DNA of 64,000 bases, from NCBI GenBank assembly GCA_041661275.1, contig JBAZUU010000001.1, positions 229,057-293,056 of the forward strand. Reading direction: 5' to 3'. The notes below the pieces were generated by a model, which saw only the letters and a list, made by a program, of their open reading frames with translations, was not told the origin of the DNA and searched no databases. The translations under genes and the position numbers were made by a program. This document shows, in pieces, positions 9,809 through 46,076 of this stretch. Numbering within the stretch: the stretch's first letter is position 1; every line of letters starts with the position of its first letter. This DNA is from Parcubacteria group bacterium (GTDB taxonomy: Bacteria; Patescibacteriota; Minisyncoccia; Moranbacterales; UBA2206).

Positions 9809-10795
9809 TTATTTGATTAGTTCTATTTTCAGTTTATCACCTTGTCTTGTTACTTTCAATCCTTTGAATAATACAACCTGGCGCTTATTCTTATTACTAG
9901 CGATGATCTTGATCAGTTCTTTTATATGCGCCGACTCAATATCCTTGAGACCAGATTTTTTATCGGAAATTGCCCGTAAAATCACTCTTTTTTGGATAGC
10001 GGGCGGAAGATCAAGGATTTTTTTGACGCTTAACTCTTTATTCTTGGCATATGCCCTATCCGAGACTTGTGAAATATATTCCAGATCCTCGGCGATAGTT
10101 TCAATGGAAGAAAAAATAGTCTTTTTGATCTGCGGATTGAAATTTTTTTCAAGATATGGAATGAGTTTGTTTCTGATCTTGTTCCTTAGATATTTTGATT
10201 CGAGGTTGGTTTTGTCAATTCTGTATTTTAATTTATTCTCTTTTAAATATTTTTCGATTTCAGCTCGGGGAATATTTAGGAGCGGTCGGATAACTTTCTC
10301 ATTTTTATACTGCATAGCAGAGAGTCCCTGAAGTCCCGCGCCGCGGATAATTCTCATGAGATATGTTTCTACCTGATCGTCCTGATTATGAGCAACAGCG
10401 ATAAGATCAAAATTATTTTCAGATCGAACTTTTTCAAAAAAATCATAGCGGATGTCACGCAGTTCTTTTTCAGAAGGAGTTTTCCTAAAACCCGGTTTTA
10501 GGATTTTTATTTTCAAGCCGTATTTTTTTGCCAAATCGCGGACGAATTTTTCATCCTTGTCGCTGTCTTTTCCGCGCAGGCCATAATTTACATGAGCAAT
10601 GATCAGCTCAAGGTCGTATTTTTTTTGTAATTTACTAAAAATATCCAAGATACAAGTTGAGTCTGGTCCGCCGGAAACTGCTAGAATAATTTTTGACCCA
10701 CGCTCAAAGATTTTATGTTGAAAGATAGTGTTCTGAACTTTTTTAACTAGACTTTTCATTAATTTTGGATTGGATGAATCCGAGCACTTTCTCAA
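9809..10795 (-). CDS. tilS: tRNA(Ile)-lysidine synthetase TilS
   Basis: PP-loop ILAVSGGPDSTCIL. The position next to ftsH matches the conserved tilS-ftsH neighbourhood. The true start is probably an internal Met, because the ORF overlaps cmk. Confidence 0.85.
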   Translation of the reverse strand: MRKCSDSSNPKLMKSLVKKVQNTIFQHKIFERGSKIILAVSGGPDSTCILDIFSKLQKKYDLELIIAHVNYGLRGKDSDKDEKFVRDLAKKYGLKIKILKPGFRKTPSEKELRDIRYDFFEKVRSENNFDLIAVAHNQDDQVETYLMRIIRGAGLQGLSAMQYKNEKVIRPLLNIPRAEIEKYLKENKLKYRIDKTNLESKYLRNKIRNKLIPYLEKNFNPQIKKTIFSSIETIAEDLEYISQVSDRAYAKNKELSVKKILDLPPAIQKRVILRAISDKKSGLKDIESAHIKELIKIIASNKNKRQVVLFKGLKVTRQGDKLKIELIK

Positions 10796-11315
10796 AAACT
10801 TGTTCTGGATCCAGATCGGTAGTATCTACTACGAAATCGTAATTATTCTTGTTTCTGATATTTATCCCGTAATATTGCATATATCTCTTATCATCAGTTT
10901 CTCTTCTTTCCTGAACTTTTTTCATAACGTAATCTACGGAAGCGGGCGGTTTTTTTGTTTCATTCCTGTTGTTCTTTTCCAGAATCTCTTTATATATACG
11001 CTTAGCGCCTTCCTCTTCGGCTACTTTCAGATAAATTTTTATAGAATTTGGGATGAAATGCCAGGCTACCCGGCTATCAATGATAAAGTTATCCTGTTCT
11101 TTAGATAATTTTATTACATAATCATCAACTTCTTTATCTATGCTAGGATCGGTTTCGCCTAGCTTTAGATATTCAACCAAACTCAACCCTCTTTTTTTAG
11201 ACATTTCGCGGAAAATTTCTCCGGTCGTGTATCGGGTAAAATTTATTTTTTCTGCCAATTTTTTGGCAACCGTAGTTTTTCCCGATCCCTCGTCGCCGTT
11301 GATAGTTATGATCAT
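10743..11315 (-). CDS. cmk: cytidylate kinase
   Basis: P-loop GDEGSGKTT and an NMP-kinase architecture. Its position immediately upstream of rpsA matches the conserved cmk-rpsA pair. Confidence 0.75.
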   Translation of the reverse strand: MIITINGDEGSGKTTVAKKLAEKINFTRYTTGEIFREMSKKRGLSLVEYLKLGETDPSIDKEVDDYVIKLSKEQDNFIIDSRVAWHFIPNSIKIYLKVAEEEGAKRIYKEILEKNNRNETKKPPASVDYVMKKVQERRETDDKRYMQYYGINIRNKNNYDFVVDTTDLDPEQVFEKVLGFIQSKINEKSS

Positions 11316-12900: not shown

Positions 12901-13447
12901 TCAAATTCTTATGCCTTTTTACTAAATATATCACGAGATAGGCTAAAATAATCAATGAATAGTTGGTTATCATAAACCAGGGTGTGCCCCAATGGACACC
13001 ATTCACCTTAAAATCGGAAAAAGGCCAAAGGAAGGGCGTAGGATAGAAATCATAGGAATGAGACGGAATGTCCATAATAATATGAATGATCCAGCCAAGC
13101 ATTTCCCACACTGGTCGTCTAAAAATCAGCCAAATTAGGCCGAAAATAAGGAAAAATATGAGCAGACTATGGCTTAGGTTATACAGATGATGGGTCAAAT
13201 TGTTGATAACAAGCCCATTTCCGGTGGCTGGCTCCATGTGGGCCGGTCCTGGATGGTCCATTTTAGGAATTCCTGGGAATATATATGAGGCGAACATATA
13301 TATGAAAGCCGGCGCGAAAGCAAAAACATCCGGAAAAACGCCAAAAACCACCATTTTCCACGTTTTTAACGGTTTTTTCTTGAATATTTTAATATTCCCA
13401 GCCTTCGAAGCTGCCCCAGCCCAAAGGCCGTGTGCGAAAACATCCAT
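12890..13447 (-). CDS. membrane-bound metal-dependent hydrolase-like protein (DUF457/YdjM-like)
   Basis: MDVFAHGLWAG start, histidine-rich motifs and several TM helices. The family call is tentative. Confidence 0.5.
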   Translation of the reverse strand: MDVFAHGLWAGAASKAGNIKIFKKKPLKTWKMVVFGVFPDVFAFAPAFIYMFASYIFPGIPKMDHPGPAHMEPATGNGLVINNLTHHLYNLSHSLLIFFLIFGLIWLIFRRPVWEMLGWIIHIIMDIPSHSYDFYPTPFLWPFSDFKVNGVHWGTPWFMITNYSLIILAYLVIYLVKRHKNLTPH

Positions 13448-13590
13448 CCGGTAGTAGAATTTCGACTGAGTTTTCCTCTGGAAAACTCAAATCAAAACTA
13501 AATAAAATTAATTAAACTTCTAATTAAATACAATTTAATGAATATATAATGACTAAGATTTTAAAAGTCGAAATTTCACTACCGGATCCA

Positions 13591-13854
13591 TCAGCGTTTT
13601 TTATAAAAATACTCTTTTAGCCTTCTCTTTAATAACCTCCTACCATGACTAGTTTTGAAATATTTCTCTCGCCTCTTAGCATCATTTTCATTTAAAACTG
13701 CTTCATAATAAATTAATTTCCATGGCATATATCTTTTTGTCGATTGCGATATTCCTGAATTATGTTCTTCAAATCTTCTTTTTAGGTCAGTAGTATAGCC
13801 AATATAGAGTTCGCTATTTTTCAAGCTTTCTAGTATATATGTATAATAAAACAT
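13591..13854 (-). CDS. GIY-YIG nuclease-superfamily small protein
   Basis: YYTYILES...LYIGYTTDLKRRFEEHN matches the GIY-YIG motif arrangement. Confidence 0.75.
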   Translation of the reverse strand: MFYYTYILESLKNSELYIGYTTDLKRRFEEHNSGISQSTKRYMPWKLIYYEAVLNENDAKRREKYFKTSHGRRLLKRRLKEYFYKKR

Positions 13855-13969
13855 TTTTTTTGTTTTCTCTATTATTACACACTTTAACCAAATAAAATAG
13901 CCCGCATAATCCTCTCTCCTCCTTAAAGAGTGGAAAATGCGGGCGGGTGTTTGTTGACGGTTGTGTTTG

Positions 13970-14863
13970 TCAGGCTGCTTTGGCAGCGAGGGCCAGAATC
14001 TCTTTCTGGACGTCCGGATCCTGAAAATGGCCAGGATTATTCTGGAAGTCGCAAATCACGCGATATTCGTCCGGACGCATTACTTTTTGTAGCTTGGGCA
14101 GCTTTTCATCAAACTCAATAATGTAGTTGACTTCCAGTTCAGCGGGAACCAAACCGAGTTCCGGATTGAAAGCAAAATCGGACGCCTTTTTTCGGTTGTT
14201 TGCGCTTCTATTCAAGGTGTAAAAAACCTTGTTGCAAGTGACCGATATCCTGCTTTGCTGGGCTGCCCAGAGCACGATGAGTCTGGCAATCAGTTTACTT
14301 CCCAGATCGTTTGCCATATCGTCGAATATGCCGACGATATCACCATTTCGGAGACGGGCCTCGACAAATTCCTTCTGGCCGTACTGCTGCGCAGAGTCCG
14401 TGCTGATTTTTCGAAGCAGATCCATGCACTCTTGTGGAGTGCGGACTTTTTCAGGCAGTGGCCTTGTGTAACCGATCCGGCGACTCCGATCGTTGTAGGC
14501 GAGCGAAGCGACAGCTGTTCCTCCGATGAGTGGAACTCCTGCCATTTCAATTCCGATGAGGACATCAAGGCTATGGACGAGGATGAGATCGGCCATCGCT
14601 CTGCATACATCATGAAAAAGCTTGGCGGAATCGCCGATCGGTCGCATGTTGTAAAACCAGGGTGCCCAACTATCGTTTTTTAGTGTCCAGCCTTCCAGAC
14701 GGTTCTTTTCTTTTGCCGCGTTCCAGAGAGTTTGTAAATACATCTCTCTATAGAGCGGAATTATGAGCAGATCTGCCCATTCTTCTTTTGATCGGTAGGC
14801 CATCTTTTCCGTCCTTTCTTGAAATAGAGGAGAAGCTGGCTGCTGATTAGGCGGCGTGCACAA
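13970..14863 (-). CDS. pyrE: type I phosphoribosyltransferase, orotate phosphoribosyltransferase-like
   Basis: PRTase-like segments (LDVLIGIEMAGVPLIGGTAVAS; NGDIVGIFDDMANDLGSKL). It overlaps the OMP-decarboxylase gene by 17 nt. The local GC content is far above the window average. Confidence 0.55.
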   Translation of the reverse strand: MCTPPNQQPASPLFQERTEKMAYRSKEEWADLLIIPLYREMYLQTLWNAAKEKNRLEGWTLKNDSWAPWFYNMRPIGDSAKLFHDVCRAMADLILVHSLDVLIGIEMAGVPLIGGTAVASLAYNDRSRRIGYTRPLPEKVRTPQECMDLLRKISTDSAQQYGQKEFVEARLRNGDIVGIFDDMANDLGSKLIARLIVLWAAQQSRISVTCNKVFYTLNRSANNRKKASDFAFNPELGLVPAELEVNYIIEFDEKLPKLQKVMRPDEYRVICDFQNNPGHFQDPDVQKEILALAAKAA

Positions 14864-15881
14864 GAGCTTCGTTGATGTTCCTTTGCATTTTCATGGCGAC
14901 CTTAGCTGATGCTTCTGCAAAATCGGGGCCGTCGGAAGCGAAATCGATCTCGGAGGCGCTGTTGATGGACATGCTTCCCTCTCCCCGATAGCCCGCCTTG
15001 ACGGTCTGAAAAATGAATCCGCCTTGAGTTCCGACCCCCGGGACCAGAAACCACAGGTAATCCTTGACGATTTCTCGGCAACGGGAAAGATGCCAGGAAA
15101 AAATGTTGCCGGATCCTTTTTCTTCCGGCGGTTCGTAGGCGGCGGCCATCACGAGACCGGCGTCAGCCTGTACGCCGAACTTTTCTGACCAGGCCAGTAC
15201 GCGTTCCGCAATGAATTCCCAGTAATGTCTGCCGTCGGCCAGTTTGATGTCCTGGACTTCCCGTGCGGAAGGGTTGCTGGTGTAGCACAAACTGACGATA
15301 GCCCGGCCGGGCGTGGCATTACTTATCAGGCTTTCCATGCATTCTGAACCCATATAGGGGCCGAAGTTCATGCCATCGACCCCGTCGATTTCCAAATGAG
15401 CAATACGGTAGCGTTGCTGTGTCCGACCGATATCTCCACGCTTGCAGTCCAGAAAGACTGGGATGCTGGGATGGAACTTGTGGATATGATCGACAATGGC
15501 CTGAAGAGCCAGTCGCCCCCCCTCAAAGGCCTCGTAATGAGCGACCTGCGGTTTGAAGTGTAACGTGTACGGCGCTGTCGAATCCACGATTTCTGTCATC
15601 CATTTGGCGCATCGGCGCCAGTCGCTTGGAAAAGATCTGCGAACAATATCCGGACATTTTTCCATTATTGGGTCCAGACCAACGCAAACCAGTGACTTGA
15701 CTTTTCTTTCACGCAATACCAGTTTTTGTCTGAAACCTATTGCCTCACTCATGATTTTCTCCCTTTTCATTTTTTCGCGCGAATTCATTCCCGGCGGCAA
15801 CGATTGCCACCAGATCCATAGCCCTTTTTTCTGTAATTTTCTCCTATTTTGTAAATGCAATTCAATTTTTCGCAAAGTCAA
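14847..15881 (-). CDS. pyrF: orotidine-5'-phosphate decarboxylase, type 2
   Basis: VCVGLDP, FLDCKRGDIGRT and LVPGVGTQGG motifs. The N-terminal 40-60 aa are probably not translated, since an internal Met (MSEAIGF...) is a likelier start. The gene is GC-rich. Confidence 0.75.
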   Translation of the reverse strand: MTLRKIELHLQNRRKLQKKGLWIWWQSLPPGMNSREKMKREKIMSEAIGFRQKLVLRERKVKSLVCVGLDPIMEKCPDIVRRSFPSDWRRCAKWMTEIVDSTAPYTLHFKPQVAHYEAFEGGRLALQAIVDHIHKFHPSIPVFLDCKRGDIGRTQQRYRIAHLEIDGVDGMNFGPYMGSECMESLISNATPGRAIVSLCYTSNPSAREVQDIKLADGRHYWEFIAERVLAWSEKFGVQADAGLVMAAAYEPPEEKGSGNIFSWHLSRCREIVKDYLWFLVPGVGTQGGFIFQTVKAGYRGEGSMSINSASEIDFASDGPDFAEASAKVAMKMQRNINEALVHAA

Positions 15882-16098
15882 ATTTCAACGAACTGTTTAA
15901 AAAATCCCAAAGAAAAATTTCTCCTTGAGCCTCCTTAGCCAATTTTTAATCTATCTTAAACCTACGGCAAAATCCCCCATCCGTCAACAAAAATCCATCC
16001 AAAATACTCTCGACAACGCCTGTTTATTATGATAATATGACATAGTATTGTATCTTTTTTATACAAAATACTATATACTAAATACCAAATACTATTCT

Positions 16099-16758
16099 AT
16101 GATTATCCAATACTACGGGCATTCTTGCTTTAAAATAACCACAAAACCGGCCGGACGAGGACAAGATGATGTGACGATGTTCATCGATCCTTTTGACAAA
16201 GCCATTGGTCTTCGTCCGCCACAAGGACAAGCAGATTTGGTTTTGGTGACACACGACCATCATGACCATAATAATGTCGAAGCGATCAAAGGTGAACCAT
16301 ATATCATCGACATTCCGGGAGAATATTCGGTCAAAGGTGTCAATATTGTCGGAATGAAGACGTTCCATGACAAAAAAGAAGGCGCTGAACGCGGAGCTAA
16401 TACTATATATATACTAGAAACAGAAGAATTGCGGATCTGCCATATGGGTGATTTGGGGCATTCTCTCTCTGAAAAGGAGCTGGAAGCGATAAATGGTGTG
16501 AATATTTTGATGATTCCCATTGGCGGAAAATATACGCTCGACGGAAAAGAAGCGGTTGATATAATCAAAAAGATTGAGCCGGAAATTGTTATTCCAATTC
16601 ACTATAAAATAAGTGGGTCAACAGTGGACGTGGATGACGAGAAAAAGTTTTGCAAAGAAATTGGAAACTGTCCGAAAGAAAAAGTAACAAAGATCAATAT
16701 CAAGAAAAAAGATTTGGAGGGAAAAAGTATGGAAGTAATACTTATGGGAGTCGAATAA
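16099..16758 (+). CDS. metallo-beta-lactamase-fold metal-dependent hydrolase (UPF0173-like)
   Basis: HxHxDH motif (VTHDHHDHNN). The track ORF starts at 16048, but MIIQYYGHSCF at 16099 is the likelier start. Confidence 0.75.
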   Translation: MIIQYYGHSCFKITTKPAGRGQDDVTMFIDPFDKAIGLRPPQGQADLVLVTHDHHDHNNVEAIKGEPYIIDIPGEYSVKGVNIVGMKTFHDKKEGAERGANTIYILETEELRICHMGDLGHSLSEKELEAINGVNILMIPIGGKYTLDGKEAVDIIKKIEPEIVIPIHYKISGSTVDVDDEKKFCKEIGNCPKEKVTKINIKKKDLEGKSMEVILMGVE

Positions 16759-16782
16759 AAATTTAAAAATATTTATAACTAC

Positions 16783-17106
16783 ATGGGGTTTATACAGAAC
16801 AAAATAAACGAAATAAGAAAAAAGCCAGAACATATCAGGATCCGTTACGCTTGGGCTTGTGCTGCTGGCGTAACATTTTTGGTCATCATCATCTGGATCG
16901 TTTCTCTCACTGCTAAGAATCAGGACGAAATTACCAATCAGGAAATTTTTACTCCAGAACAGATGAAACCGATCGAAGACCTGAAAACTAGTGGACAAGA
17001 TCTGAAGAACGCTACGGATAAATTGAAAGATGCCGCAGGAAATGCCCAAAACCAACAGAAGATCAGTAATCCGCAGAATCCGGGAGAAGGATTTAATAAC
17101 CAATAA
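16783..17106 (+). CDS. small membrane-anchored protein, unknown function
   Basis: A single TM helix followed by a Q/N-rich tail. Confidence 0.4.
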   Translation: MGFIQNKINEIRKKPEHIRIRYAWACAAGVTFLVIIIWIVSLTAKNQDEITNQEIFTPEQMKPIEDLKTSGQDLKNATDKLKDAAGNAQNQQKISNPQNPGEGFNNQ

Positions 17107-17263: not shown

Positions 17264-20200
17264 ATGGAAAAAGATATCAAAAATACTAGCGTTATTCAAT
17301 CGCGGGAAATTACCGAAGAAATTTCGCAATCCTATTTGGATTATGCTATGAGCGTCATTGTCGCTCGCGCTTTGCCTGATGTTCGCGATGGCTTGAAGCC
17401 GGTTCACCGAAGAATCCTCTATTCCATGTGGAACACTGGTCTTCGCGCCAATGCTAAATTCCGAAAATCAGCCACAGTGGTCGGAGAAGTCTTGGGAAAA
17501 TATCACCCGCATGGCGACGTGGCGGTCTATGATTCTATGGTGAGAATGGCCCAGGATTTTTCTCTACGCTATCCATTGGTGCGCGGTCAGGGAAACTTCG
17601 GTTGTTTTACAAAAGACACTAGGGTCAAACTGGCTGATGGGCGGAATTTAAGCTTCGAAGATCTTATAAAAGAAGATAAACAGGGCAAAAAAAATTACAC
17701 CTATACGGTTAATTCTTTGGGTTTAATTTCAATAGCTCAAATAAAAAAACCTCGCCTTACCATTGAAAATGCAGAAGTCATTAGAGTTGTGCTGGACAAT
17801 GGGCAGAAAATTAAATGTACTCCTAATCATTTGTTTATGCTCAAAAACGGCCAATATGAAGAAGCGCAAAATCTGAAAAAAGAGGATTCTCTAATGCCGT
17901 TATATGAAAAGTTATCGGAAAAAACTGATAGGCTAAATCGTGAAGGATATACTCTAGTATACCAGCCCAAAAAAGACGAATGGGTTCCCGTGCACCACCT
18001 GGCTGATAATTTCAATTTGACTGTTGGAAAATACATAAAAAGTGTCGGTAGGGTAAGGCATCATTCGGATTTCAATAAACTTAATAACAGTCCTGAAAAT
18101 ATTGTCAGAATGAATTGGAAAGAGCATTGGAGCGTTCATTATGAAAACGCTTCCTTGTTGCATAAAAGCGCGAATTATCGCCAAAAAATTAAAGAAGGTC
18201 GGGATAAATATTGGTCAGACTCTCAAGTTCGAGAGCAATATGCAAAGCGTTTATCTGAAAGGAATGTGATAAATTGGGAAAATCCGGAATATCGGGAAAA
18301 GATGCGTCTTTTTTTGAGCGAGATGAATAAGCAGTATATGAAAGATCATCCGGAAAAACGCCAGGAAATTAGTGAGCGCGCTACAAAAACTTTGAAAAGG
18401 CTTTGGAAAAATCCCGAGTATCGCGCGATAATGCATGAAAGAATAATCAAGGGAAACAAAAATCACAAAACCAATAAAACCGGCAGGTTAAAGTTCCTCA
18501 ATGTTTGTAAGGAAATTATTGCAAAAAATCTTGAGATAAATGAAAAAAATTATTCTCAATTCAGAAAAAAAGTTTATGCCTATGGAGCGGCAACGCTATG
18601 GGAGACAGGATTGAATAAATATTTTCAAAATAGTCCTGACCTGATTCGACAGGAAATAAGCAAAAATCACAGAATCGTTAGGATCGAAAAGATAAAAGAA
18701 AAAGAAGATGTGTTTGACCTTACGATTGATAATTCTCACAACTTTTGTTTGGGTGCCGGAGTATTTGTTCATAACTCGATGGATGGTGATAGCGCGGCAG
18801 CCTATCGTTATACAGAAGCCAAGCTTTCTGTCATTGCTGAAGAAATGCTTATTGACATCGAAAAGAATACTGTCGATTTTGTGCCGAACTTTGACGGACA
18901 GCACAAAGAACCAACTGTTCTTCCCGCCGGACTCCCTCAGCTTCTTCTCAACGGTTCTATGGGAATCGCTGTCGGGATGGCGACAAACATCCCTCCGCAT
19001 AATTTAGGCGAACTTATCGACGGCATCAATTGTCTTATTGAAAATCCGGACGCGGAAATTTCTGATCTCGCGGAATTTGTGAAAGGTCCGGACTTCCCTA
19101 CTGGTGGTATAATTTACAACAAAAAAGACATCCTGGAAGCCTACAAGACCGGACGGGGAAAAATTCTCACGCGAGCCAAGGCGGAAATCGTGGAAACAAA
19201 AGCCGGTGCGTTTCAAATCATTGTGAGCGAAATGACTTATGCCACTAACAAAGCGACAATGATTGAGCGAATGGCTGATCTGGTGCATGAAGGAAAAATT
19301 GTCGGTATTAGGGACATTCGAGATGAATCAGACAAGGAAGGAGTGCGGCTGGTCATTGAGCTCAAAAAAGACGCTTATCCGCAAAAAGTTTTGAATAAAC
19401 TATATTCCCTCACCGATCTCCAAAAAAACTTTGGAGTGAATATGTTGGCGCTGGTCGGTGGCATTGAACCGCAGATCTTGAACCTGAAAGATATTTTGGA
19501 AGAATATATCGAACACCGAAAAATTGTCATCACTCGCCGGACTAAATATGATCTGGAAAAAGCACGAGACCGGGCGCATATTTTAGAGGGCTTGAAAATC
19601 GCTCTTGATCATATCGACGCGGTGATAGAAACAATCAAAAAATCAGAAACCAAGGAAATTGCTCATGTCAATTTGATGAAAAAATTCAAATTATCCGACA
19701 GACAGGCTACAGCAATTCTCGAAATGAGATTGCAAACTTTGGCGGGGCTAGAGCAAAAGAAAATCGAAGACGAGCTAGCCGAAAAACTGAAACTGATTGC
19801 GGAGCTCGAAGCTATTCTAAAGAGTGAAAAGAAAATTTTAGGAATAGTCAAAGATGAGTTGGCGCGCGTCAAAGAAAAATATGGCGATGAGAGAAAAACC
19901 AAGATCGTGAAAGGCGGCATCACCGAATTCAAGCAAGAAGACCTTGTGCCGAACGATGAAGCGATAATCACTATTTCCAAAGAAGGATATATTAAAAGAA
20001 TGGATCCGGCCGTATACAAAGTTCAGCGTCGGGGCGGAAAAGGAGTGATTGGCGCCACCACCAAAGAAGGCGATGAAATTTCTGAAATGCTGGGCGTTAT
20101 GGCGCACGACAATCTTCTCTTTTTCACCAACACCGGAAAAGTTTTCCAGACGAAAGCTTATGAAATTCCCGCTTCCACCCGGATCGCCAAAGGCCAGTCC

Positions 20201-20884
20201 ATTGTCAATTTCCTTTCACTTTCCAGTGAAGAAAAAATAACCGCGTTGGTGGCGTCTGGAAAAGATGACGCCTATAAATATATGTTTATGGCCACGGAAA
20301 ACGGCACAGTGAAAAAAACATCGATCGAAGAATTTGAAAATGTCAGGCGTTCCGGACTCATCGCGATAAAGCTGGAAAAAGGTGACGCGCTTTCCTGGGC
20401 GGAAGCGACATCGGGATCTGACGAGGTAGTCATCACTACGCAAAAAGGACAAGCCATCCGCTTTCGCGAATCCGATGTCCGTCCGATGGGTCGTGCTGCA
20501 GCGGGAGTGCGTGGCATCAAACTAAAAACCGAAGACAAAGTGGTCGGGATGGATGTCGTTTTTAAAGGACAAAAAGGCAATCAGCTTTTGGTCATCGGAG
20601 AAAATGGATATGGAAAAAGATCAGATCTCAAATCATACAAAGTCCAGAAGCGCGGTGGGTCAGGAATCAAGACTGCTTCCATCACAGCCAAGACTGGAAA
20701 ACTGATCGGAGCGCAAGTAGTCAATCTTGATGATATTGAACAAGATCTTATTATGACAAGTGAGAAAGGACAGATCATCCGCATTGAGCTAAAAACCGTC
20801 TCCGTCCTCGGCCGCGCGACGCAAGGTGTCAGGGTTATGCGTCCACAACCCGGCGACAAAGTTTCGGCGATAACGGTTTTGTAA
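17264..20884 (+). CDS. gyrA: DNA gyrase subunit A, interrupted by an intein
   Basis: [23 protein letters not shown] and [12 protein letters not shown], then the intein, then [17 protein letters not shown] and the GyrA beta-pinwheel repeats. The extein totals about 815 aa. Confidence 0.95.
17603..18775 (+). mobile_element. GyrA intein (about 391 aa) at the canonical site between GNFG and SMDGD
   Basis: It begins with Cys ([13 protein letters not shown]...), ends ...[12 protein letters not shown] and is followed by Ser. The central domain carries tandem NPEYR(E/A) repeats. I see no LAGLIDADG motif. Confidence 0.85.
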
Positions 20885-21708: not shown

Positions 21709-21840
21709 GACTACTCCTTTTTGATGACGGATTTAATTTCAATGAGCTATCATTTCACTTGAATTTTCCTTGAACAATTCAAGAAAAACTCGAGAAAATG
21801 TGGGAAGTTTTGAGGATAAACTTCCCGGAAACCATAGTGG

Positions 21841-42679: not shown

Positions 42680-42752
42680 GGATCCCTAGCTCAATGGCTA
42701 GAGCACTTCATTTACACTGAAGGGGTTATAGGTTCGAGTCCTATGGGATCCA
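42680..42752 (+). tRNA. tRNA-Val(TAC)
   Basis: GGATCCC-TA-GCTCAATGGCTAGAGC-A-CTTCA-TTTACAC-TGAAG...GGGATCC-A. Confidence 0.85.
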
Positions 42753-42775
42753 CACACATTGGAATTATATAGTTT

Positions 42776-42846: not shown

Positions 42847-43152
42847 GCCAGGTTAGCTCAGCGGTAGAGCGAAGGACTGAATTTCGGTCCGTCCGGCAGT
42901 AATGCCGGAATGAAAATTGGGTGAATTCGAGGAAACCTAAGTTGCCGATGAGGCAAAATGGCAATCTCGAGCCAAGTCTTGATGGGCATAGTTTTCAAGA
43001 AAGGTGTAGAGACTAGCGAGTGAGTCCCAACAATAATCTCGCATTAGCGCCCAATATCCTGATGAAGGATAATGAAATAGTCCAATCCTTGGGGAAACTC
43101 AAGAAGGAAAAGGAAAATCCTTGCGTGCCCAGTTCGACTCTGGGACCTGGCA
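42847..43152 (+). tRNA. tRNA-Phe(GAA) split by a group I intron in the anticodon loop
   Basis: Exon 1 is GCCAGGT-TA-GCTCAGCGGTAGAGC-G-AAGGA-CT (42847-42878). Exon 2 is GAAAA-TCCTT-GCGTG-CCCAG-TTCGACT-CTGGG-ACCTGGC-A (43113-43152). Spliced loop is CTGAAAA. Confidence 0.75.
42879..43112 (+). ncRNA. group I intron (234 nt), no ORF
   Basis: The internal guide GGTCC pairs with exon 1 GGACU through a U:G at the splice site, and the intron ends in G. Its core resembles the cyanobacterial tRNA-Leu intron as I recall it (GGAAACCTAA; CTCGAGCCAAGTC; GGTGTAGAGACTAGCG; TAGTCCAATCC). Confidence 0.75.
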
Positions 43153-43209: not shown

Positions 43210-43281
43210 GCGGGTGTAGTATAGTGGTTATTACGTCAGGTTGCCAATCTGAATACGGCGGTTCGATTCCGCTCACCCGCT
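43210..43281 (+). tRNA. tRNA-Gly(GCC)
   Basis: GCGGGTG...TCAGG-TTGCCAA-TCTGA...GGCGGTTCGATTCCGCT-CACCCGC-T. Confidence 0.85.
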
Positions 43282-43291
43282 CAAAATCACG

Positions 43292-45338: not shown

Positions 45339-46076
45339 ATGGGCATAAAATATCAGGTCAATGAAAAATTTTTCGATAAATGGTCATTGGAAATGGCATA
45401 TATTCTTGGATATTTGTATGCAGATGGAAGCTTGGAAGATGCGAGTTATTTAAGAGGAAAGTATCTGAGGGTTTCCAGTATAGATAGGGAGTCGATATTG
45501 AAAATAAAGCACTTATTGAACTCCAAACATAAGATTGTCAAAAAGAAAAACTTATCAGGAAACCAGAAGAACTGTTATCTTTTGAGAATTGGAAGTCATG
45601 TTTTATATAACAGACTTATTGAACTAGGGCTGTTCCCGAACAAATCACTTTCGATGAAATTTCCTGATATGCCCGAAAAATATCTGCGTTTTTTTGTCCT
45701 AGGTTATTTTGATGGAGATGGGTGTGTTATGGTGCGCAAGGAGAGAAATAAAAAAGGTGCATTTGTATTAAAAGGGCTTCGCGTTGTGTTTACTTGTGGC
45801 AGTATCGATTTTTTGGAGAAGTTAGCTAAAAGAATAAATAATGCTATCAATACAAAGCAATTAAAAATATATAACGGACATAGATCGTATATGCTTTCTT
45901 ATTCAACAGACGATAGTGTATTGATTTTTAAATTCATATATAATATAAGTAAGCCAATTTTTTTAAAAAGAAAGTTTGTAAAATTCTGTGATTATTTCGA
46001 TTTAAGAATTAATAGAAAGGATAAGTATGTGTGCAAGATAATCGAAAGGTTTAATCTTGGCCGTGTGGCGAAGTAG
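45339..46076 (+). CDS. free-standing double-motif LAGLIDADG homing endonuclease
   Basis: Two LAGLIDADG motifs (LGYLYADGSL and LGYFDGDGCV) about 100 aa apart. The ORF end overlaps tRNA-Cys by about 18 nt. Confidence 0.8.
   Translation: MGIKYQVNEKFFDKWSLEMAYILGYLYADGSLEDASYLRGKYLRVSSIDRESILKIKHLLNSKHKIVKKKNLSGNQKNCYLLRIGSHVLYNRLIELGLFPNKSLSMKFPDMPEKYLRFFVLGYFDGDGCVMVRKERNKKGAFVLKGLRVVFTCGSIDFLEKLAKRINNAINTKQLKIYNGHRSYMLSYSTDDSVLIFKFIYNISKPIFLKRKFVKFCDYFDLRINRKDKYVCKIIERFNLGRVAK

Follow-up and report, generated by a model that had tools for sequence, protein, structure and literature searches.

Two adjacent minus-strand genes in a Parcubacteria group bacterium (GenBank assembly GCA_041661275.1, contig JBAZUU010000001.1) form a GC-rich island within the 64,000-nucleotide stretch of DNA analysed here (positions 229,057 to 293,056 of the forward strand, hereafter the window, in whose own coordinates all positions are given). 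One gene encodes PyrF, an orotidine 5′-monophosphate (OMP) decarboxylase, and the other, called PRT-like here, encodes a divergent protein resembling orotate phosphoribosyltransferases (OPRTases). The island probably arose when a resident pair of pyrF and a phosphoribosyltransferase (PRTase) gene was replaced by alleles of a related, GC-richer lineage within the Candidate Phyla Radiation (CPR), with PRT-like being a divergent OPRTase. The two genes and the tract that contains them are as follows.

Positions 14847 to 15752, minus strand: pyrF, a type-2 orotidine-5′-phosphate decarboxylase gene of 301 amino acids, recognized by TIGR02127 and PF00215.
Positions 13970 to 14803, minus strand: PRT-like, a divergent orotate-phosphoribosyltransferase-like gene of 277 amino acids, recognized by profile, fold, neighbourhood, and natural fusion.
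Positions 13970 to 15815, no strand: exchanged tract, about 97% identical to a sister species, delimited by a blastn block, identity per 100 nt, and synonymous divergence, with the right edge taken from the alignment.

Evidence for replacement comes from two genomes with the same gene order around the pair, a sister species (JGI 3300037810, L023) and a more distant relative (GCA_030837625.1, L020). The order common to both is MBL-fold hydrolase, pyrF, PRTase, YdjM-like, S1, kinase, TilS, and FtsH. Flanking DNA of the window is 78-81% identical to that of L023, compared with about 97% for the island genes, whose proteins are 99.3% and 97.8% identical. Synonymous divergence (dS) from L023 is 0.109 and 0.123 in the island genes and 0.82-3.1 in eight flanking genes, including FtsH, S1, and MBL. 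The limits are tight, with identity per 100 nt reaching 93-100% only within 13990-15789 and dropping to 62-88% immediately outside. The tract comprises the two coding regions, the spacer between them, and a short leader, and it coincides with the GC-rich stretch. Because constraint alone cannot give a tenfold fall in dS that also covers the spacer, the pair is considered to have been exchanged after the window and L023 species split. An assembly chimera was rejected as the source of the pattern, since the arrangement was independently assembled in the 299.6-kb ENA contig k141_323660 and the L023 island differs from that of the window by about 3-5%.

The comparison also bears on what was gained. 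Both relatives carry pyrF and a PRTase at the same site, so the island does not represent a presence/absence gain, and only the type of PRTase differs in L020, where the partner is a conventional 211-aa PF00156 protein with pyrE models as its best matches. Horizontal acquisition, as proposed in an initial annotation of this DNA, is thus supported as recent exchange by the dS values and identity steps, but not as gain of a new function. Proteins of L020 are 62-82% identical to their window counterparts. Its pyrF, at 82% protein and 75.7% DNA identity, shows no discordance with its flanks (72-76% in DNA). Since the L020 pair lies at the same position and its pyrF diverges as the flanks do, a pyrF/PRTase pair appears to be ancestral at this site, with the PRTase type switched in one lineage. 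The clade ancestor would have carried the pair at this chromosomal position, and the present alleles of the window and L023 would have arrived after the species diverged, either by recombination from a related CPR lineage of higher GC or, following an import of that kind, by transfer between the two species. The simplest source of the island alleles would be a GC-richer related lineage. In lineages of about 47-50% GC that carry the pair, its composition looks native, and one of these lineages (L037, about 47% GC) illustrates a plausible class of donor.

The initial annotation saw no source for the pair, and a version of its account would have a new orotate-to-UMP (uridine 5′-monophosphate) module arrive from a foreign donor outside the CPR, possibly carried by the neighbouring GIY-YIG nuclease gene. 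Such an origin is very unlikely. The shift in GC and codon usage on which it drew is real, but the best homologues of both pyrF and PRT-like are all from Patescibacteria/CPR, and the same function already occupies the same L020 site with flank-like divergence. The PRT-like family does extend to archaea and to magnetotactic Nitrospirota (about 47-51% GC), yet the Nitrospirota copies are only 45-55% identical. A GIY-YIG gene does abut the tract, but L023 has the cassette without it, and the 87-aa GIY-YIG protein lacks a DNA-binding domain. No relatives of the pair were found in the viral contigs, phages, or plasmids searched.

The tract is also distinct in composition. In 300-nt windows, GC is 0.46-0.56 across about 13950-15750 and 0.27-0.44 on both sides, and the 1-kb bins 14001-15000 (0.498) and 15001-16000 (0.490) are the highest of 64, against a window mean of 0.404. 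GC at third codon positions (GC3) is 0.536 in PRT-like (13970-14803, minus strand, overall GC 0.494) and 0.592 in pyrF (14847-15752, minus strand, overall GC 0.525, computed on a 15788 start). The 51 other open reading frames (ORFs) of the window have a mean GC3 of 0.401 with a standard deviation of 0.035, corresponding to z = 3.8 for PRT-like and z = 5.4 for pyrF. An expected GC was obtained by recoding the same proteins with the window's own synonymous codon frequencies, giving 0.448 for PRT-like (observed 0.495) and 0.474 for pyrF (observed 0.534). The codon-choice residuals of +0.047 and +0.060 amount to an excess of 3-4 standard deviations (host genes: standard deviation 0.014, maximum 0.022), and the log-likelihood under host codon usage yields z = -2.1 and -2.2 for the two island genes. 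The shift is toward CTC/CTG, GTC, ATC, AAC, TAC, TGC, AGC, GCC, and GGC, with His and Asp codons unshifted. About half of the GC excess is due to amino-acid composition and about half to foreign synonymous codon choice. The GC-rich two-gene stretch between AT-richer flanks and the codon-usage shift, both noted in the initial annotation, the GC contrast by eye, hold when quantified, and composition is not uniform. Both copies of the island, in the window and in L023, are GC-rich relative to their own genomes. Import of a tract limited almost exactly to two genes would account for their foreign GC and codon usage.

The compositional anomaly is not confined to this window and recurs across CPR loci. 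At four loci of other CPR bacteria with about 40% GC (L001, L003, L026, and L039), the decarboxylase/PRT-like pair lies 8-12 GC points above its neighbours, with GC3 z = 1.6-3.8.

These recurrences, along with the conservation of the locus in L020 and L023, could be read as signs that the pair is native and vertically inherited, its GC set by amino acids and expression-linked codon bias and its similarity to L023 by strong constraint. This explanation is quite unlikely. Although amino-acid composition does supply about half of the GC excess, and favoured C-ending codons (TAC, AAC, ATC, GTC, and TGC) can accompany translational selection, S1, IF-2, FtsH, and GyrA in the window have GC3 of 0.39-0.43 without the island's codon shift, and His and Asp codons in the island are not shifted. 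Strong constraint is also difficult to reconcile with dS about 10 times below that of eight neighbours, highly constrained FtsH, S1, and MBL genes among them, or with the high identity that extends over the 43-nt spacer and into the 5′ leader.

As a case of homologous allelic replacement, the island shares with known examples and with compositional islands its atypical GC and codon usage, sharp boundaries, and dS far below that of the flanks. It differs in having no integrase, tRNA target, or direct repeats, in replacing a resident pair of the same function, and in ending near the ends of the gene pair. The tight tract limits are modestly novel, as is the transferase subfamily. The gene transfer is real, but function and biochemistry are ordinary, and the island offers a clean, quantifiable case in which uncultivated CPR bacteria of different species have recently recombined.

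The PyrF protein is, by sequence, predicted to be an ordinary member of the type-2 family, converting OMP to UMP. It scores 154.8 bits against the TIGR02127 pyrF_sub2 model (curated cut-off 110.6), with protein residues 50-323 aligned to model positions 1-258 of 261, i.e. full-length coverage, and matches PF00215 at E = 7e-16. VCVGLDP, DCKRGDIGRT, and VPGVGTQGG can all be read in the translation, in agreement with the clear type-2 decarboxylase first recognized here. A catalytic role for the N-terminal Asp of the GLDP strand, Asp-x-Lys-x-x-Asp, and the C-terminal phosphate-binding Gly-rich loop is taken to be established knowledge for the family. PyrF subfamily 2 (TIGR02127; PF00215) is typified by GLDP, DxKRGDIG, and GxGxQGG motifs and a length of about 300 aa, all of which apply here, and hundreds of CPR homologues are 58-67% identical to the window protein. 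The window gene differs from them in no functional respect, only in GC and codon usage foreign to its host and in near-identity to the copy of a divergent sister. Its start is likely ATG 15752, which follows a GGGAG Shine-Dalgarno sequence 7 nt upstream; other possible starts are ATG 15788 and TTG 15881. The longest ORF, of 344 aa from TTG 15881, is probably too long, because homologues are about 297 aa, with N-termini near MSEAIGF, and because ATG 15752 follows GGGAG.

The PRT-like protein is resolved as an OPRTase relative by profile and fold. A profile of 24 family members matched only OPRTases in the PDB (best E = 1.2e-6), and alignment to E. coli PyrE by hhalign reached 87% probability. 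An AlphaFold2 model from the 24-member alignment (predicted local distance difference test score, pLDDT, 93.7; predicted template-modelling score, pTM, 0.89) has a predicted type-I PRT fold with an OPRTase-type N-terminal hood. In a Foldseek comparison with the PDB, the top 48 matches were all named OPRTases or UMP synthases (E 1.4e-11 to 3.3e-7), with target-normalised template-modelling (TM) scores up to 0.81. The initial annotation had described a PyrE-like PRTase overlapping pyrF; the likeness is supported, but the genes overlap solely when PRT-like is taken to start at its furthest-upstream TTG (14863).

Residues that bind substrate in OPRTases are kept. In the hhalign alignment, K26, F34/F35, R99, D124-D125, and R156 of E. 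coli PyrE (in a numbering that agrees with published residue numbers) correspond to K42, F50/Y51, R114, D161-D162, and R199 of PRT-like. R114, D161-D162, and R199 are invariant across the 24 family members. The orotate-binding residues are thus represented by K42, F50/Y51 (consensus PWFFN), and invariant R199. The PRPP (phosphoribosyl pyrophosphate)-binding motif, IVGIFDDMANDLGSK, comprises a hydrophobic strand, two acidic residues, and a phosphate-binding loop, in which D161, D162, S169, and K170 are invariant in the 24 sequences and which is one residue longer than the canonical loop.

In comparison with solved OPRTases (PDB 4ohc, 2wns, 1lh0, and 1oro), the family shares the type-I PRT fold with N-terminal hood (TM about 0.8, target-normalised), the segment 'LKSG..SP(Y/W)FFN', which binds orotate, the two acidic residues (DD) in the PRPP motif, and the 'L(D/N)R' motif's Arg. 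Its gene also adjoins pyrF, and in some cases the two are joined into one, an arrangement known from UMP synthase. It differs in being only 9-16% identical to the solved enzymes, in its longer phosphate loop (DDMAT-x-LGSK), in a C-terminal helical extension of about 35 aa, and in a length of 277 aa, compared with about 175-235 aa. On sequence grounds, PRT-like appears to be a new OPRTase variant that current models miss. Literature on CPR bacteria with orotate, pyrE, or pyrF yielded no description of the family or of the cassette.

The family is small. Among 1.84 billion representative proteins, 41 match at E ≤ 1e-30 and 105 at E ≤ 1e-10, with a tail that merges into ordinary OPRTases, and a word-indexed search found 62 members, mostly from Patescibacteria. 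From genomes and metagenomes, 55 PRT-like loci were recovered, about 50 of them distinct. An OMP decarboxylase gene is nearby, usually adjacent, in about 31 of the roughly 50 distinct loci, and at least 10 have a dihydroorotate dehydrogenase and/or a dihydroorotase-like amidohydrolase gene nearby. PRT-like is in most loci the sole PRTase next to pyrF, pyrD, or pyrC, and at four (L005, L010, L019, and L048) it lies clearly within pyrD-pyrC-pyrF clusters. A 579-aa metagenomic protein (P0183) is a natural fusion of an N-terminal PRT-like domain with a C-terminal OMP decarboxylase, an architecture like that of UMP synthase. On account of this neighbourhood, the fusion, and the kept orotate- and PRPP-binding residues, PRT-like is very likely a functional OPRTase, with an activity that would convert orotate and PRPP to OMP. 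The partner decarboxylases span several subfamilies, and the nearest PRT-like relatives (L024, L025, and L003; 54-65% identity) adjoin decarboxylases only 25-32% identical to that of the window; therefore, the two cassette genes differ in their deeper history.

Several loci related to the family have unusual neighbourhoods. In a Parcubacteria locus with about 30% GC (L002, 8525-12619), a decarboxylase, PRT-like, two conventional PRTases, and a second decarboxylase lie in a row, which could represent two redundant sets or sets with different substrates. In Ca. Magnetobacterium and related magnetotactic Nitrospirota (L004, L006, L007, L008, and L011), the PRT-like protein is 50-55% identical to CPR members, and its gene is always downstream of a bestrophin-family gene (PF25539); pyr genes are missing from the vicinity, a pattern that points to transfer across phyla and perhaps to another function. 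In a WS5 contig (L062, 5430-6017), a LOG/TIGR00725-like gene (PF18306) sits between a dihydroorotase-like gene and pyrF, at the expected place of the PRTase, and at another locus (L060) a different PRTase-like protein of 292 aa, likewise without a Pfam match, is encoded upstream of pyrF.

A broader interpretation, which is possible but falls short of probable, holds that PRT-like is an unmodelled class of OPRTase that has taken the place of conventional PyrE next to pyrF in scattered lineages of CPR bacteria, archaea, and Nitrospirota, and that the pair circulates among Parcubacteria as a cassette. Recombination would end near the gene boundaries and preserve the GC-rich signature in genomes of about 40% GC, as at the four other CPR loci with GC-rich pairs. 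If so, episymbionts otherwise unable to make nucleotides would be able to turn scavenged orotate into UMP. A repeatedly exchanged orotate-to-UMP unit would reveal what minor metabolic abilities are retained and traded by reduced genomes.

Several findings weigh against the preferred reading, in which a resident pair was replaced by CPR alleles and PRT-like is a divergent OPRTase. L023 and L020 aside, no donor nearer than 62-67% amino-acid identity was found, and genomes that share about 80% identity would be expected to recombine homologously with low efficiency. The tract borders have no mobility gene (integrase or transposase), tRNA, or significant flanking repeat, and, as described above, amino-acid composition alone accounts for about half of the GC excess. 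For the enzyme, PRT-like has no Pfam match at E ≤ 0.01, PF00156 included, and falls below all curated PRTase and pyrE models (PF00156, TIGR00336, TIGR01367, and the NF-series pyrE models); its best NCBIfam score is 19.5 bits against a cut-off of 115, for NF002620 'OPRTase-like protein'. The conventional PRTases encoded next to pyrF at further CPR loci likewise miss the pyrE cut-offs, at 18-93 bits. Lys73 of the E. coli enzyme, which binds pyrophosphate (PPi), aligns with Ala in an invariant E86-M87-A88-G89 segment that stands in place of E. coli A-Y-K73-G, so that the PPi-contacting Tyr72-Lys73 of the 'AYKG(I/V)P' loop is not kept in the family. The flexible catalytic loop is split by a helix-containing insertion of 25-60 aa. 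Ahead of the insertion, a near-invariant or invariant Y-T-R114-P-L-P-x-K119 could supply the Arg and Lys of the loop, and a conserved Y-G-x-K144-x-x-x-E148 follows it; relative to the Arg99, Lys100, Lys103, and His105 loop of E. coli, no His equivalent is evident. Finally, L002, where PRT-like is accompanied by a pair of conventional PRTases and a pair of decarboxylases, might point to another substrate.

Several of the points on the enzyme also favour an alternative in which PRT-like is a pyr regulator with a PRT fold, in the manner of PyrR or GfcR, or acts on a base other than orotate as a phosphoribosyltransferase, and the pair is not a simple pyrE-pyrF unit. The only weak NCBIfam matches are to 'OPRTase-like protein' and to GfcR, and a regulatory role or other substrate is kept in view because of the L002 array and the bestrophin context in Nitrospirota, where the gene does not adjoin pyr genes. 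This alternative is nonetheless unlikely, as no nucleic-acid-binding domain was detected in PRT-like in the Pfam scan, the nearest structures are all OPRTases rather than PyrR, PurR, or other PRTases, and the orotate- and PRPP-binding residues are invariant. The company that PRT-like keeps, as the only PRTase next to pyrF, pyrD, or pyrC in most loci and as a domain of the UMP-synthase-like fusion, also argues against it.

With PRT-like as a divergent OPRTase, the pair would carry out the last two steps to UMP. Patescibacteria are thought to depend on hosts for nucleotides. De novo nucleotide synthesis is reportedly absent from 93% of Patescibacteria genomes, and nucleotide-biosynthesis genes, with OMP decarboxylase among the marker proteins used, are reported to have a scattered phylogenetic distribution (preprint 10.64898/2026.06.21.733656). 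In a groundwater survey, 55% of CPR metagenome-assembled genomes had only the steps from UMP onward (PMC11608272). No relatives of pyrC or pyrD were found in the window by tblastn, and no window ORF reads as pyrB or carAB, judged only from ORF N-termini, which agrees, within that limit, with the earlier remark that no other de novo pyrimidine genes are visible. A gene of the cytidylate-kinase family lies 2.6 kb away, at 10743-11315. Because pyrC and pyrD are absent from the window and de novo synthesis is reported to be scarce in Patescibacteria/CPR, orotate salvage by the pair, with orotate imported rather than synthesized, is plausible; the pair may otherwise end a complete de novo pathway. 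Neither Pfam nor NCBIfam models detect the transferase, so surveys of pathway completeness will count genomes that rely on it as lacking pyrE.

The pair is predicted from its signals to form a two-gene minus-strand operon, pyrF first and PRT-like second, in which each gene has its own ribosome-binding site and an intrinsic terminator follows.

Positions 14804 to 14846, minus strand: intergenic spacer of 43 nt, carrying a Shine-Dalgarno-like AGGA for PRT-like, as read from the sequence.
Positions 13890 to 13944, minus strand: intrinsic terminator of the operon, a hairpin at 13900-13944 followed by UAUUUUAUUU (U-run), identified by fold energy.

AGGA stands 8 nt upstream of the PRT-like start at ATG 14803, which agrees with homologous N-termini, and the spacer lies inside the high-identity tract common to the window and L023. 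The terminator, which is also inverted repeat I4, folds at -29.8 kcal/mol (z = -4.8), and its stem is kept in L023 by a two-sided change, from GCCCGCAT/ATGCGGGC to GCCCACAT/ATGTGGGC. A promoter scan returned no more sites than in shuffled sequence, and no RNA element was found at 13000-17000 with Rfam at gathering thresholds.

The small GIY-YIG gene reported next to the island is readily recognized.

Positions 13591 to 13854, minus strand: GIY-YIG gene of 87 amino acids, catalytic domain only, outside the exchanged tract (PF01541, E = 1.2e-17).

The gene lies within an insertion of about 400 nt (roughly 13476-13868) that is also present in the independently assembled ENA contig and is missing at this site in L023 and L020. 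On account of that absence, it is a separate, strain-specific insertion, incidental to the tract. Downstream of the gene, and counted as part of the same insertion, inverted repeat I1 (13446-13467 / 13566-13587; 22 nt, 91% complementary) encloses 98 nt of AT-rich DNA, and together the gene and the repeat suggest a small mobile GIY-YIG cassette. Free-standing GIY-YIG homing endonucleases, such as the Seg proteins of phage T4 and I-TevI, cause co-conversion of flanking markers. The window resembles those systems in that the gene directly adjoins a tract of recent conversion and varies in presence among strains. It differs in that the 87-aa protein has the catalytic domain only, with no DNA-binding domain, and in that L023 has the tract without the nuclease gene. 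The protein scores 19 bits on a group I intron endonuclease model with a cut-off of 56. Linkage of GIY-YIG genes to the pair was rejected, since no more than 3 other loci have a homologue, at distances of 1-7 kb from the pair and with no fixed association.

Other candidate signatures of mobility were likewise discarded. Inverted repeat I2, which flanks the tract (13945-13963 / 15978-15996), has an 11-nt perfect core, of which about one is expected by chance per 3 kb, and direct repeats were short matches at chance level. The nearest tRNAs are more than 6 kb from the tract. A phage, plasmid, or viral vector was rejected, as neither gene has a relative in IMG/VR contigs, and tblastn with PRT-like found no match in GenBank phages or PLSDB plasmids.

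Elsewhere in the window, several features unrelated to the pair were observed. GyrA (17264-20884, plus strand) is 1206 aa long, compared with 815 aa in L023 and 820 aa in L020, and the added length, at about residues 120-443, is an intein that neither relative has (PF14890 Intein_splicing, matched on the identical gene call in ENA). A group I intron at 42869-43104 on the plus strand (RF00028, 87.4 bits against a gathering score of 50) is flanked by tRNA-Val(tac) at 42680-42753 and tRNA-Gly at 43210-43282, and it may interrupt a tRNA gene not called by ARAGORN. A 245-aa ORF at 45339-46076 (plus strand), whose GC of 0.32 is the minimum for the window, terminates slightly within tRNA-Cys and contains a 'LGYLYADGSLED' motif; by eye, it looks like a free-standing LAGLIDADG homing endonuclease. 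Finally, an 83-nt intergenic segment at 21752-21834 is 95% identical to L023 in surroundings of 70-81% identity; its minus strand has two strong hairpins (z = -5.9) with no Rfam match, and its role might be that of a conserved terminator or small RNA.

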